Shown here: positions 13,602 to 17,963 of the stretch, in pieces
How positions within the stretch are numbered: position 1 is the first letter of the stretch
Layout: the number at the start of each line of letters is the position of its first letter
NCBI GenBank assembly: GCA_964291285.2
Contig: OZ219787.1
Span: 288,001-352,000 of the forward strand
Direction of reading: 5' to 3'
Source of the DNA: Alphaproteobacteria bacterium
GTDB lineage: Bacteria; Pseudomonadota; Alphaproteobacteria; Bin95
DNA length: 64,000 nt
Notes under the pieces: model-generated
What the model saw: the letters and a program-made list of their open reading frames with translations, nothing else
Databases searched by the model: none
Told to the model about the DNA's origin: nothing
Position numbers and translations under genes: made by a program

Positions 13602-14015
13602 ATGACGGATATGTTGACAGAGCGCAGACCGGGCAAGTCCGTCGGCGAGGAGCTCAGGCGCCGGGCCGTCGCGGCGGTGCTGGAGAAGGGGATGACCGGC
13701 CGGGCCGCGGCCCTGCTTTTCGAGGTGAGCGAACCCAGCATCTGGCGGTGGATAAAGCGCTATCGGGAGCGCGGCCACCTGCGCGACGCCCCGAAGAGCG
13801 GCCGCCCGTCGCGGACCGAGCCGGAGCGGGAGCGGATTTTCCGCCTTCTGGAGGAGCAGCCGGACCTTTCCGTCCGCGGGCTGCAGCGGGCGCTTGCCGC
13901 CGAGGGCCTGGTCTTCGATCCGGCCACGCTGCACCACTTCCTGAAACGCCACGGCCTCCAGCGCGGCCGCCGCCTCGCATGGCGCCGCAAGCCGGTGCCG
14001 AAGGCCGGCGCCTAG
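13602..14015 (+). CDS. IS630-family transposase N-terminal HTH region only (no DDE domain)
   Basis: ELRRRAVAAV...AALLFEVSEPSIWRWIKRYRERG...GRPS...QPDLSVRGLQ...LHHFLKRHGL; stops at 14015 with no catalytic ORF following. Confidence 0.75.
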   Translation: MTDMLTERRPGKSVGEELRRRAVAAVLEKGMTGRAAALLFEVSEPSIWRWIKRYRERGHLRDAPKSGRPSRTEPERERIFRLLEEQPDLSVRGLQRALAAEGLVFDPATLHHFLKRHGLQRGRRLAWRRKPVPKAGA

Positions 14016-14029
14016 CGCACGGCCGTAGA

Positions 14030-14072
14030 CGATTCCAGGCTAATTAAAAATCGGATTTTGAATTAGCCTGAA
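14030..14072. repeat. 43-bp AT-rich near-palindrome, copy 1
   Basis: cgattccaggctaattaaaaatcggattttgaattagcctgaa; 1 mismatch versus 17435-17477. Confidence 0.9.
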
Positions 14073-14175
14073 TTTCGGCGGCGGGGTCGCCGTATGGCGG
14101 CGGCCCGGACTACCCCGTCTCCGGCGGCGCGGACTACGGCGAACTCAGACGGCTTCGCACATCTGATGGCGAACG

Positions 14176-14514
14176 TCACACGCGATTCTTGTCGCCTTGA
14201 ATCTGGACCACGGTGGCATTGTCGCCGGTCACGTCCGCAGTTTGTGGTGCGTGCCTGGCGCTGGCAGCGCCGAGGAGGTCGCGGAGTTCGTCGGCGAGGT
14301 TCGGAGACGCCTCCAACTCCCGCCGCAGGAGGCGCACCAGTGCGTTCCGTGCCTCACCATCGCCAGGATCGGCGGCGAGATGTTCGGCGGTATCGGCCGT
14401 CTTCGAGCCGACACGCCGCCGCATCCATTCCATGATCGGCCCGGCTGCTGCCTTGACCGTCTCAGTTACGAACACGGCAACCGCCTGCACAGCTAAATCT
14501 TCCATATCGTTCAT
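14176..14514 (-). CDS. Small putative helical effector (Bell-like domain) with C-terminal amyloid-like motif
   Basis: 112 aa; ATG overlaps the NLR stop (ATGA) after an AGGAAGGAG RBS; LAADPGD...LRRELEASPNLADELRDLL core; tail QTADVTGDNATVVQIQGDKNRV. Confidence 0.75.
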   Translation of the reverse strand: MNDMEDLAVQAVAVFVTETVKAAAGPIMEWMRRRVGSKTADTAEHLAADPGDGEARNALVRLLRRELEASPNLADELRDLLGAASARHAPQTADVTGDNATVVQIQGDKNRV

Positions 14515-17240
14515 CCGTTCGCTTCTCCTTCCTCGCACGCAAGGCACTGAAATGCCTCTTCCACCAATGCCAGTAAAGCCGCATCGGGTTCTTGACCGAC
14601 CTCTTCGTAGCGTTTGCGGTAGTCGTGGATCATCCACTCCATTTCCTGCGCAAAACCTGCCGGCCGCCCAAGGAATGTTTGTTTCAGCAACTTCACGGCT
14701 TCCTCGACGGTAGGGAGTACACCTTCCCGCCGACCGTCCTTCAACAGAAGGCGTGACAAATTGCTGAGAGATTTGGCCAAGTCAGGCAGGAAGATGTGGG
14801 GCGACACGGTGGCCAAACCGTGCCGAACTATTACCGCCTCCCTGGCAGTGGCGAGCGCGTCCTCGTGACGCCCAGCTTTCGAAAGATAAGTGAACAAGTT
14901 GTTAAGCGATGCGGCCAAGTAAGGCAGGAAGGCATCGGGGCGGGTTTCTGCCAAGAAACGATAGACCGTCACCGCCTCTTCCACGGCAGCAAGAGCCTCC
15001 TCCAAATGCCCAACTTCCGACAGACAAACGGACTGGTTGCTGAGGGACGTGGCCAAGTAAGGCAGGAAAGAATCGGAACGAGTTGCCGCCAAGTCGCGAT
15101 AGATCATCACTGCCTCTTTCACGGTGGCAAGAGCCTCCTCCGAACGCCCGACTTTCCACAGACAAGCGGACAGATTGTTCAGCGACTCGGCCAAGTCAGG
15201 CAGGAAGGCATCAGGACGGGTGGCCACCAAGCCGCGATAGATCTTCACTGCCTCTTCGGCGGTAGCGAGCGCATCCTGCTGACGCTCGACCGCCAACAGG
15301 CGGTTTGACAAGTTGCTGAGAGACTTGGCCAAGTCTGGCAGGAAGGTATCGGATCTGGTTGCCGCCAAGCCGCGATAGATCGTCAGTGCCTCTTCGTTCC
15401 CGGAGAGTGCGTCCTCATGCCGAAGCATCTTTGACAAGCAGATCGACAGGTTGTTGAGGGACATGGCCAAGCCGGGTCGAAAGGTTTCAGGATAAGCGGC
15501 CGCCAAGTCGCGATAGACCGTCGTCGCCTCTTCAGCAGTCGCCAGCGCGTCCTCCCGCCGCCCGACCTTCGATAAACAGGCGGACAGGTTGTTGAGCGTT
15601 CCAGCTAAACTAGGCAGGAAGGCATCGGGACGGGCGACCTCCAAGTCGCGATAGATCTTCACTGCCTCTTCAGCAACGGCGAGTGCGTCCCCGCGTCTCT
15701 CAACGTCCGATAGGCGGTTTGACATGTGATTGAGCGAGACCGCCAATAGCGCCAAGTGATTCTCCTCTCGCGTCTCATGCACGAGTGGTTCAATCAGTTC
15801 GGCTACGGCGTGTGCTATCTCCACCGCGATTTCGCGTAATTCCACCGTGTGCCGCGGCATCGCAGCGCTCAACTCAATCAGTGTGGAGAGATCGGTTCGG
15901 GCATCGAAAATCCGCTTAAGCCAGTCCATCGGTTGGCGATGGCCGTGGATGGCATAGTCTTGGCAGGTGCGGATGACGGTCTCCATCGTTGCGACCGGTT
16001 CGGCCTCGTGGGCGCGAACGATGGCGGGCAGAGCGTCGGTTTTTCCTTCCCAGACCGAGAGCAACACGGCCTCGCCGATCATGTCCGGCTCGACCGGCGC
16101 CACGCCGCCGCCGTCGGGCAAGGCGGTGGCGATTACGTCGCGCAACGCCGCCGGTCCGGCGGGGAGGGCGTAGCCAAGTTTGACCGCTTCTTCCTCAAGG
16201 ACAAGGCGCGCTGCCTCCCTCGTCAGCCCTTGACGCAGTGTCGCGACGGCGACCACGTGATCGATCAACGGGCCTAGCCCTTCGGTCACGCCGTGGCCGG
16301 CCACGACCTTGCGGATACGCGACAGCTCGGTTTCGGCGATGTTCAGCGCCAGTGTGTCGGTCCCCAAGGCGAGCACATGACCGAAGTCGGTCCGCGCTGC
16401 CGTGACGGCGGCCATCATCAACAGGAGCGGCACGCCGCCCCAGGTCAACTCGGCAAGACGGCGGTCGAAATCCGCGTCCTCCGGTAGCGTCAGGTCGCTG
16501 CCAAGCCGCGCCAGGGTCCGCGTCAGAATCGCTCGCCGATGGCTTGGGTCGTCGAGGGGATGCAAGGCAACGGGCCGGAGCGGGTCGAGCATCTTCTCGA
16601 CCGTCACCGCGTCGTTGCCACGCCCGAACGCCTCAGCCCACCAGCCGTCGCCGTGTGTCGCATGGCGCTCGAGCAGGAGCAGGCGCAGCGGCCGATTACG
16701 CCCGGCATCGTCCTGGCTCCAGACCGGATGATCCGCCAATTCCTTCAACCAGGCGTTGAGGTCGCGTGCGCTGGCCGAGGCGTAGTCCACGACCGCCAGA
16801 ACCCGAGTACTCCAGTCCCAGGCCGCAAGATTCGTCTGTTCGCGAAAACGCGCCAACCCCTCGCGAGTCAGGAAGCCGGCCCGCCAGCCATCCGCCGCCA
16901 TTTCCTCGACCAGTTCCAGCGCCAACCGCGTCTTGCCGAGCCCGGCCCCGCCGGTCAGCACCCTCACGGAAACCGGCTCGCCGTTGTGCAGCCAGTCGCG
17001 CAGGTCGGACAATTCCGTTTCGCGGCCGATAAGGTCGATGGAACGGGCGAAGGGCCCGATCACCTCAATCTCGTTCGGCCTGCCGGTGTCAGGATCGTTG
17101 CCAATGCGGCGGGACAGTCCGGTGCGCCGTGTCAGTTCCAGATACGGCGTCCCGGCAATGACGGTGTTCCCGTCGCCTTGTATCTGGACGATGGTCGATC
17201 CACTGTCCGCTCTTGCCGTCTGACCCGTATTCCCGCTCAT
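14511..17240 (-). CDS. NLR-like STAND P-loop NTPase with C-terminal TPR repeats and N-terminal amyloid-like motif
   Basis: LIGRETEL, Walker A GGAGLGKT, Walker B VLAVVDYA, RLLLLER, GGVPL; eight 46-aa LAxSLNNLS...EEAV.IYR.L repeats. Confidence 0.88.
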   Translation of the reverse strand: MSGNTGQTARADSGSTIVQIQGDGNTVIAGTPYLELTRRTGLSRRIGNDPDTGRPNEIEVIGPFARSIDLIGRETELSDLRDWLHNGEPVSVRVLTGGAGLGKTRLALELVEEMAADGWRAGFLTREGLARFREQTNLAAWDWSTRVLAVVDYASASARDLNAWLKELADHPVWSQDDAGRNRPLRLLLLERHATHGDGWWAEAFGRGNDAVTVEKMLDPLRPVALHPLDDPSHRRAILTRTLARLGSDLTLPEDADFDRRLAELTWGGVPLLLMMAAVTAARTDFGHVLALGTDTLALNIAETELSRIRKVVAGHGVTEGLGPLIDHVVAVATLRQGLTREAARLVLEEEAVKLGYALPAGPAALRDVIATALPDGGGVAPVEPDMIGEAVLLSVWEGKTDALPAIVRAHEAEPVATMETVIRTCQDYAIHGHRQPMDWLKRIFDARTDLSTLIELSAAMPRHTVELREIAVEIAHAVAELIEPLVHETREENHLALLAVSLNHMSNRLSDVERRGDALAVAEEAVKIYRDLEVARPDAFLPSLAGTLNNLSACLSKVGRREDALATAEEATTVYRDLAAAYPETFRPGLAMSLNNLSICLSKMLRHEDALSGNEEALTIYRGLAATRSDTFLPDLAKSLSNLSNRLLAVERQQDALATAEEAVKIYRGLVATRPDAFLPDLAESLNNLSACLWKVGRSEEALATVKEAVMIYRDLAATRSDSFLPYLATSLSNQSVCLSEVGHLEEALAAVEEAVTVYRFLAETRPDAFLPYLAASLNNLFTYLSKAGRHEDALATAREAVIVRHGLATVSPHIFLPDLAKSLSNLSRLLLKDGRREGVLPTVEEAVKLLKQTFLGRPAGFAQEMEWMIHDYRKRYEEVGQEPDAALLALVEEAFQCLACEEGEANG
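14680..15746 (-). repeat. Intragenic tandem 138-bp (46-aa) TPR repeats, 8 units, last one partial
   Basis: Recurring LA.SLNNLS..L..VGR.EDALA..EEAV.IYR.LA..RPDAFLP in translation. Confidence 0.85.
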
Positions 17241-17434
17241 CCGCAGATTATACGGCCCCAATAACAATTGTGCGGCAATCCGATGCCCCGGCTACGCATT
17301 CTCCCACCGGCGCATTTCCTCGACCAAGGCTGCATGGTAGCGGGTTTCGAGCGAGTCCGGGTCCTGCGCCAGAAGGCGTTCGAGTTCGGCCATCCTCGCC
17401 TCCCGGTCCTGCCGGATTTCGTCACGGTCCCGGC

Positions 17435-17477
17435 CGATTCCAGGCCAATTAAAAATCGGATTTTGAATTAGCCTGAA
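17435..17477. repeat. 43-bp AT-rich near-palindrome, copy 2
   Basis: cgattccaggccaattaaaaatcggattttgaattagcctgaa; direct repeat of 14030-14072 at offset 3405. Confidence 0.9.
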
Positions 17478-17808: not shown

Positions 17809-17963
17809 CGTCACCCCGGCCCCCGAGCCGGGGTCCAGCCTCGGTTCTCGCGGTAGCCCCGGATCGGGGTCCGGGGCAGGCCTCGGCGGTCGGTCCCGTT
17901 CTCCACCGGCTGCGGCGGCATCGGGAGTTCGGGATGGACCCCGGCTCGGGCGCCGGGGTGACG
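17809..17963. repeat. REPIN/MITE-like element with palindromic terminal inverted repeats
   Basis: cgtcaccccggcccccgagccggggtcca ... tggaccccggctcgggcgccggggtgacg. Confidence 0.8.

Follow-up and report, generated by a model that had tools for sequence, protein, structure and literature searches.

What does a gene pair do in which one protein begins with the sequence that ends the other? This question is raised by a window of 64,000 nucleotides from an alphaproteobacterium (contig OZ219787.1 of assembly GCA_964291285.2, positions 288,001 to 352,000; the window is this whole stretch, and positions below are counted from its first letter). A gene for a protein resembling nucleotide-binding oligomerization domain (NOD)-like receptors (NLRs) is followed there by a gene for a small putative effector. 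Our analysis of sequences, structure models and related loci suggests, with a probability of about 0.7, that the pair is a two-gene BASS/Bell-type amyloid-signaling module for regulated cell death, acquired by horizontal transfer.

In the mechanism we favor, the tetratricopeptide repeat (TPR) array of the NLR-like protein would sense a ligand, and its STAND NTPase module would oligomerize and thereby crowd the N-terminal Q/N/G-rich motifs of 22 residues. The crowded motifs would take a cooperative beta (amyloid-like) fold, which could act as a template for the identical motif in the tail of the 112-residue protein, translated together with the NLR-like one. Conversion of the tail would free the hydrophobic helix 1 from a five-helix bundle, leading to membrane attack and cell death, either in abortive infection or in a similar sacrifice.

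The layout of the two genes is consistent with such a module. The NLR-like open reading frame (ORF) runs on the minus strand from an ATG at 17240 to a stop codon at 14511-14513, and the effector ORF from an ATG at 14514 to a stop codon at 14176-14178. The overlap of stop and start (ATGA, Table 1) would couple their translation. An earlier, sequence-only reading of this DNA had matched the N-terminus of the NLR-like protein to the C-terminus of the effector, and we recovered the match at the same coordinates and with the same sequences. Head and tail have in common the 22-residue tag QTAxxxGxxNxxVQIQGDxNxV. At the DNA level, the reported identity at 17 of 18 nucleotides was reproduced, and it lies inside a 29-nt stretch at 83% identity. 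We place the NLR start codon, ATG 17240, upstream of the motif because homologues begin with M-M/R-Q-T-A; an in-frame TTG at 17267 is likewise upstream. Collinear genes with a 4-bp overlap and a motif at NLR head and effector tail make up the layout of NLR/effector amyloid-signaling pairs, as had been proposed.

Table 1. Features of the gene pair and of its immediate surroundings, with positions in the window.
Feature	Position	Strand	Remarks
NLR-like gene, 909 aa	14511..17240	-	motif at the N-terminus, then a STAND-type NTPase module, about 8 TPR-like repeats of 46 aa and a helical cap at the C-terminus
Putative effector gene, 112 aa, Bell-like	14176..14514	-	
ATGA, overlap of NLR stop and effector start by 4 bp	14511..14514	-	
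NLR-side motif, residues 7-27, QTARADSGSTIVQIQGDGNTV	17160..17222	-	
Effector-side motif, residues 91-112, QTADVTGDNATVVQIQGDKNRV	14179..14244	-	disordered in the monomer model
Predicted five-helix domain of the effector, residues 1-86	14257..14514	-	helix 1 (residues 3-18) hydrophobic, with D3/E5/D6 before it
NTPase (NOD) module, residues ~66-480	15801..17045	-	Pfam AAA_16 7.8e-6 and nSTAND_NTPase5 1.4e-3, both below curated cut-offs
Walker A, GGAGLGKT, residues 97-104	16929-16952	-	
TPR array	14646..15761	-	Pfam TPR_12 1.6e-27, TPR_10 6.3e-18
DNA absent from the syntenic site of congeners (cassette)	14071..17264		about 3.2 kb holding just the two genes
3' remnant of a native AAA_14/DUF4143 ATPase gene (its final ~50 codons with the stop)	17287..17439	-	directly upstream of the NLR-like gene
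Palindrome P2, 35 bp, AT-rich	14036..14070		native genus element, outside the cassette
Palindrome P1, 35 bp	17441..17475		native genus element, adjoins the PEP-mutase gene

Could the similarity of head and tail be a functionless by-product, due to chance in low-complexity sequence or to recent gene conversion between the two ends? The best local alignment places effector residues 99-112 on NLR residues 14-27 with a score of 46. This score was reached by 0 of 5000 shuffles in a comparison of the 30-residue tail with the 40-residue head, and by 190 of 2000 in a comparison of the whole effector with the whole NLR-like protein. Because so many whole-protein shuffles attain it, the single pair is not decisive by itself, and both this result and the near identity of the DNA speak for a by-product.

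The two protein families answer the question. A word-indexed search with NLR residues 1-480 returned 171 proteins at E≤1e-3, and we compared the N-termini of the 119 that were listed, excluding the window's own protein. QxxGxxN occurs within the first 110 residues of 101 of these 119 homologues; the other 18 consist of 4 with a loose variant, 11 gene calls that start inside the NTPase, and 3 with other heads. An exhaustive HMMER search for effector relatives gave 71 representatives at E≤1e-3, including the window's own, nearly all of them 100-135 residues long. Here, QxxGxxN lies within the last 45 residues of 61, and the remainder are mostly near variants. In the effector alignment (A1, 65 sequences), Q104, G107 and N110 are each conserved in at least 90% of sequences; in the NLR alignment (A2, 56 sequences), Q19 and G22 are invariant, and G24 and N25 reach at least 90%. 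The same consensus, QTAxxxG(D/S)GNx(V/I)(V/I)QIQGxGNxV, emerges from both profiles, and hhalign finds a single match between them, effector tail to NLR head, over 30 columns (probability 95.4%, E 1.7e-8). The two pseudo-repeats that had been noticed in the effector tail are real and present on both partners, with halves 10 residues apart (profile columns G7/G17 at 89-100%, N10/N20 at 32-95%). A rare variant, VIQAGRDV, occurs in one NLR (P0118) and one effector (P0193), which are on different contigs.

The shared motif is thus more than chance, since it is conserved in both families and their profiles match at the E value given. The family evidence is decisive in this respect, and it argues that the motif is under selection on both partners. 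With the motif kept across phyla at 41-71% overall identity (the range among the NLR homologues compared), and with no tail shuffle attaining the observed score, a functionless by-product is refuted for practical purposes, and we leave it next to no probability. The sequence-only reading had staked its case on conservation of the motif in homologous pairs, and the families bear it out.

What kind of protein carries the tail? A model built from 65 aligned sequences places helices at residues 3-18, 24-34, 37-48, 53-69 and 71-86, with a predicted local distance difference test score (pLDDT) above 90 over residues 31-80 and below 50 over the tail (88-112). The best 11-residue Kyte-Doolittle mean of helix 1 is 2.24 (family median 1.92), and 62 of the 65 family members have D or E at positions 2-6. 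The effector model is therefore a bundle of helices, of which the first is hydrophobic and acidic-capped, followed by a disordered tail, in line with the helical domain that had been proposed for it. A hydrophobic first helix preceded by acidic residues is a hallmark of Bell/HeLo-type domains (Dyrka, 2020; bioRxiv 10.1101/2020.01.06.895854). From its model, the effector is likely a member of the Bell family. A sequence search of the PDB with the effector profile returned designed helical repeats only. Of 10 clusters of effector homologues, 3 are named 'hypothetical protein' and the others are nameless; the Atlas holds unnamed clusters of about 123-131 aa, mostly from Actinomycetota, one of which has HetE-N on 11% of its members. 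A predicted complex of three effector tails and one NLR head scored 0.15 against a mark of 0.32, which carries no weight either way.

For the partner, an AlphaFold2 model of residues 1-480 has a pLDDT of 90.2 and a predicted template modeling (TM) score of 0.90. Foldseek lists 382 matches to it at E≤1e-3, with ORC/Cdc6, MalT, the NB-ARC of tomato NRC, EfAvs5, NLRP2 and Apaf-1 in the best rows (E 1e-6 to 3e-5, TM scores 0.27-0.39). In this model, the NTPase module has a STAND/AAA+ fold and is NOD-like, though it is not NB-ARC or NACHT by Pfam. The label 'NLR' given by the sequence-only reading therefore stands for the fold, as modeled, but not in the strict sense of Pfam. In its core (14845-15690), the TPR array repeats a 138-nt unit 6.1 times in tandem, at 71% matches and free of indels. 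Comparably high identity among internal repeats is reported for those NLR sensor repeats that evolve by unit shuffling.

One could envision a different division of labor in which the small protein regulates the NLR-like protein, for example as a decoy that caps the head and holds it off, and the NLR-like protein acts through something else. The claim that the latter has no enzymatic effector domain of its own was upheld: at E≤1, Pfam gives TPR families and weak P-loop matches only. This is compatible with a regulatory role of the small protein, as is the fact that no fold match proves it to be a pore-former. Distant NOD-TPR relatives at the fetched loci bear on this point. In the position of the motif, they carry CHAT (L063), Trypsin_2 (L033, L040), DUF4062 (L068) or GT4-conflict (L024, L037) domains, which identify the head as the side of output in a conflict system. 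Alternation between 'all-in-one' proteins and a motif with a separate effector is known among fungal and bacterial NLRs (Dyrka, 2020; bioRxiv 10.1101/2020.01.06.895854). Given killer-type enzymatic domains at exactly the motif position, and a hydrophobic, acidic-capped helix 1 kept almost throughout the effector family, we regard a regulatory role as distinctly improbable and a role of the small protein as effector as preferable.

Are the two families found together elsewhere? Contig scans with the NLR alignment covered at least 44 loci and at least 52 loci (genome and metagenome contigs), and all ORFs were scored with hidden Markov models of both families. Among the motif-bearing NLR genes of the window and the fetched loci, 9 of 13 have an adjoining effector-family ORF. 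These are the window's pair on its minus strand; two tandem pairs, one with a broken effector, in Acidobacteriaceae (L019); a pair in an alphaproteobacterial metagenome-assembled genome (MAG; L021); a pair in Thermoanaerobaculia with the effector upstream of the NLR (L022); a partly masked pair in Planctomycetaceae (L025); and one pair each at L065 and L077. The ninth (L128) lies in a genome of the window's own class (G218), and the first 75 residues of its NLR are those of an NCBI protein from a Parvibaculaceae bacterium, which supports the claim that such a pair resides in an alphaproteobacterium. Gene order is found either way round. At L067 the pair is present and the NLR head is lost at the contig end. 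Hosts of similar pairs include Acidobacteriota, Planctomycetota and other Alphaproteobacteria.

Whether the motifs of partners co-vary depends on the pairs compared. Within the motif family, fine co-variation is weak: in 7 complete pairs with the same motif, the cognate score was reached by 354 of 5040 permutations, the motif being conserved throughout the family. It is clear, in contrast, once pairs with switched motifs are included, as over all 9 pairs just 97 of 100,000 permutations reached the cognate score. Where the helical domain of the effector carries another tail motif, the head of the neighboring NLR bears that other motif. In a further genome of the class (G080, locus L117), the effector tail GAVAIGGNANNARIN matches the head GAVGIGGDANNAIIN of a partner that is NB-ARC by Pfam (2.8e-11), and at L123 a GSGAIAQ...VAAG...AVG motif is present on both partners.

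Several observations on related loci stand beside these pairs. In the Acidobacteriaceae MAG (L019/L121/L124), the NLR-effector pair is present in two tandem copies, with one effector broken by a stop or frameshift. The genome G080 has two paralogous pairs on different contigs (L117 and L118), each with a Bell-like effector, an NB-ARC protein and the G/A/N-rich motif GAVAIGGNANNA. Two NOD-TPR relatives (L070, 324-3038, and L078) have another head motif, ARDISxSVVVTGDGNxV. In L070, the adjoining ORF (140 aa, no Pfam family) bears the counterpart of this motif at the N-terminus and not at the C-terminus; a hydrophobic C-terminal part comes after it, and the protein looks like a different type of partner. 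The effector homologue P0126 and the NLR homologue P0066 both come from one ENA contig of 6014 bases and are probably a further pair. No fused form of the effector domain was seen among longer proteins in a search with alignment A1, which is weak evidence, and tblastn matched neither protein in a plasmid collection. In a sponge-metagenome run (X4), 9% of sampled cassette words were present.

How does the pair compare with known systems? NLR/Bell pairs with ten BASS families have been described mainly in filamentous Actinobacteria and Cyanobacteria, by a screen that kept only NB-ARC/NACHT neighbors (Dyrka, 2020; bioRxiv 10.1101/2020.01.06.895854). In both systems, the genes are collinear neighbors that overlap by 4 bp, and the effector is a helical protein of about 110-130 aa whose first helix is hydrophobic and acidic-capped. 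Effector tail and NLR head carry a Q/N/G/V/I-rich motif about 22 aa long, and the sensor joins a NOD to TPRs and has 'all-in-one' relatives. Moreover, in G080, another alphaproteobacterium, the effector family has a partner that is NB-ARC by Pfam. Unlike in the described pairs, the NOD here is not NB-ARC/NACHT by Pfam, and the hosts are Alphaproteobacteria, Acidobacteriota and Planctomycetota, not filamentous Actinobacteria or Cyanobacteria. Because its NOD is outside Pfam NB-ARC/NACHT, the window's pair would have escaped the 2020 screen.

The second system, Bab/Agp of E. coli, depends on amyloid for abortive infection and has an eleventh motif, BASS11, which is found also with NACHT and NB-ARC; the 'Babybell' domain of Bab, of about 80 aa, is described with the hallmarks of Bell/HeLo-type domains and has helix 1 cupped by four helices (Ibarlosa, 2024; bioRxiv 10.1101/2024.11.07.622273). 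The sequence-only reading had suggested a new host range for such pairs, a suggestion that this description of a proteobacterial system in 2024 overtakes. The likeness extends to effector size (109 aa in Bab, 112 aa here), a helical domain about 80 aa long, the presence on effector tail and sensor head of a motif of some 20 residues, and the proteobacterial host. The spacing Q-x6-D-N also agrees, with Q92/D99/N100 in Bab (mutated there, as was Agp N12) and Q91/D98/N99 here, a comparison of residue numbers only. A link to BASS11 is thus possible on grounds of spacing only. In contrast, Agp is built as TPR-GreA/B-C-PIN, whereas the window's protein has a STAND NTPase and no GreA/B or PIN domain, and Bab resides in prophage defence islands, whereas the window's pair lies between metabolic genes.

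Like HET-S/NWD2 in fungi and RHIM signaling in mammals, the pair is proposed to use an oligomerizing receptor that templates an amyloid motif and so activates a helical, membrane-targeting domain. HET-s has two 21-residue pseudo-repeats on the effector, with a flexible loop between them, and one on the NLR. The window's pair differs from HET-s/HRAM in having a single 22-residue motif with two 10-residue halves on both partners. The resemblance to RHIM that had been suggested for the motif core did not survive: Pfam lists RHIM for neither protein at E≤1, and the core is VQIQG, not the (I/V)Q(I/V)G of RHIM/BASS3.

Alternatively, the shared motif could be a homotypic adaptor that is not amyloid, a short beta-strand tag that docks the effector stoichiometrically onto the (oligomerized) NLR-like protein with no templated polymerization, in the manner of effector-associated adaptor domains. 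Conservation and motif switching show that heads must match tails and not how they interact, and both motifs have low confidence in the monomer models. The motif itself argues for amyloid: its Q/N/G/V/I composition, its length of 22 residues, its two G-x-G-N turns 10 apart and its terminal positions are as listed for BASS and fungal amyloid motifs, and the like-sized motif of Bab/Agp was shown to be amyloid. We consider docking without polymerization unlikely, if the most plausible of the alternatives weighed here, and prefer amyloid signaling.

Amyloid signaling by the pair must itself be weighed against several results that count against it. For this pair, we infer amyloid formation, toxicity and defence alike. 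The effector belongs to no Pfam, NCBIfam or PADLOC family; Foldseek matched its model to nothing in the PDB at E≤1e-3; and a VIA search gave a best Z of 5.9 to a generic helical structure. As the model has no significant structural neighbor, membership of the Bell/Babybell fold is unproven. Pfam lists neither NB-ARC nor NACHT for the NLR-like protein at E≤1, and PADLOC, with its models of known anti-phage STAND systems such as Avs, finds no real match for the pair, its PDC-M16A hit (E 0.0043) covering 43 residues around the P-loop. The flanking genes are metabolic and form no defence island. Four of the 13 motif-bearing NLRs (L066, L069, L072 and L075) have no adjacent effector in the DNA at hand, three of them where this DNA stops at a contig edge, and the weak fine co-variation among same-motif pairs belongs to this side as well. 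On the other side, the function of a like system has been shown by experiment for Bab/Agp.

What would the pair add? To our knowledge, Bab/Agp is the sole bacterial amyloid-signaling system with demonstrated function. The window's pair offers a clean second model, given its compactness (3.2 kb), its more than 100 metagenomic relatives and its near-invariant Q, G and N residues on both partners. Such a model would allow one to ask whether a NOD of another type supports templating, which residues determine the specificity of partners and what the TPR array senses, and the motif profile can be used to find more pairs. The kind of system is already known; the motif may be different from published BASS families. 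Its strings do not occur in the searchable full-text literature, a search that leaves logos in figures and supplementary tables outside. We suggest tentatively, and at somewhat less than even odds, that QTAxxxGxGNxxVQIQGxGNxV defines a further BASS family apart from BASS1-11, one that is tied to a NOD clade outside NB-ARC/NACHT, and so invisible to published screens, that is common among the Acidobacteriota of soil and that transfer has scattered into Alphaproteobacteria and Planctomycetota. That such pairs belong to 'multicellular' bacteria is a rule derived from screens that took in only NB-ARC/NACHT neighbors of Bell proteins. If our suggestion is true, amyloid-templated cell-death signaling would be a broadly mobile module and no speciality of filamentous 'multicellular' bacteria.

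How did the pair come to its place? The cassette is of horizontal origin. Its GC content, 62%, is lower than that of the flanks (69% and 68%), and the GC content at third codon positions of the NLR-like gene is 0.73, against about 0.9 in neighboring genes. The effector profile was not found in any of the 16 congeners searched, and across the class it was found in 3 of 401 genomes, the window's included; a search of congeners with the NLR-like protein returned TPR matches only. Synteny holds across both flanks of the cassette in three congeners (G016, G007 and G008). These have, in order, the PEP-mutase gene, palindrome P1, a gene for an AAA_14/DUF4143 ATPase (507-511 aa), 190-360 nt and an IS630-like helix-turn-helix (HTH) ORF. 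In the window, this ATPase gene has lost about 1.39 kb, in a deletion that stops exactly at P1.

Two further ideas about the ends of the cassette were examined and rejected. A tblastn match (E 0.01) between effector residues 34-112 and the stretch 17160-17408, running over a TAG stop, resembled the relic of a duplicated effector upstream of the NLR-like gene; this was ruled out because that DNA is the 3' end of the native AAA_14/DUF4143 gene, which is intact in congeners. The 35-bp palindromes as mobile ends of the cassette were ruled out as well, since 6 of 16 congeners have the palindrome by the PEP-mutase gene and lack the pair. In those 6 it occurs once each, beside the same gene; another copy, more diverged, seems to be present in G008. 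The palindrome has a perfect stem (hairpin energy -24 to -25 kcal/mol, z -3 to -4), with just two copies in the 6.1-Mb genome, and might serve as a terminator in both directions or as a site of recombination. A scan for promoters and terminators gave nothing useful.

Two minor features lie close to the cassette. A 137-aa ORF at 13602-14015 on the plus strand encodes the HTH part only of an IS630/Tc3-type transposase (HTH_32 3.7e-12), without the catalytic domain, and is conserved at this site in congeners (77-81% nucleotide identity). A 32-nt inverted repeat (17809-17840 and 17932-17963), 94% complementary and with 91 nt separating its arms, lies between the PEP-mutase gene and the cassette. 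GC-rich sequences of the GGGTCCAGCC type recur near it, and these look like repetitive extragenic palindromic (REP)-type elements.

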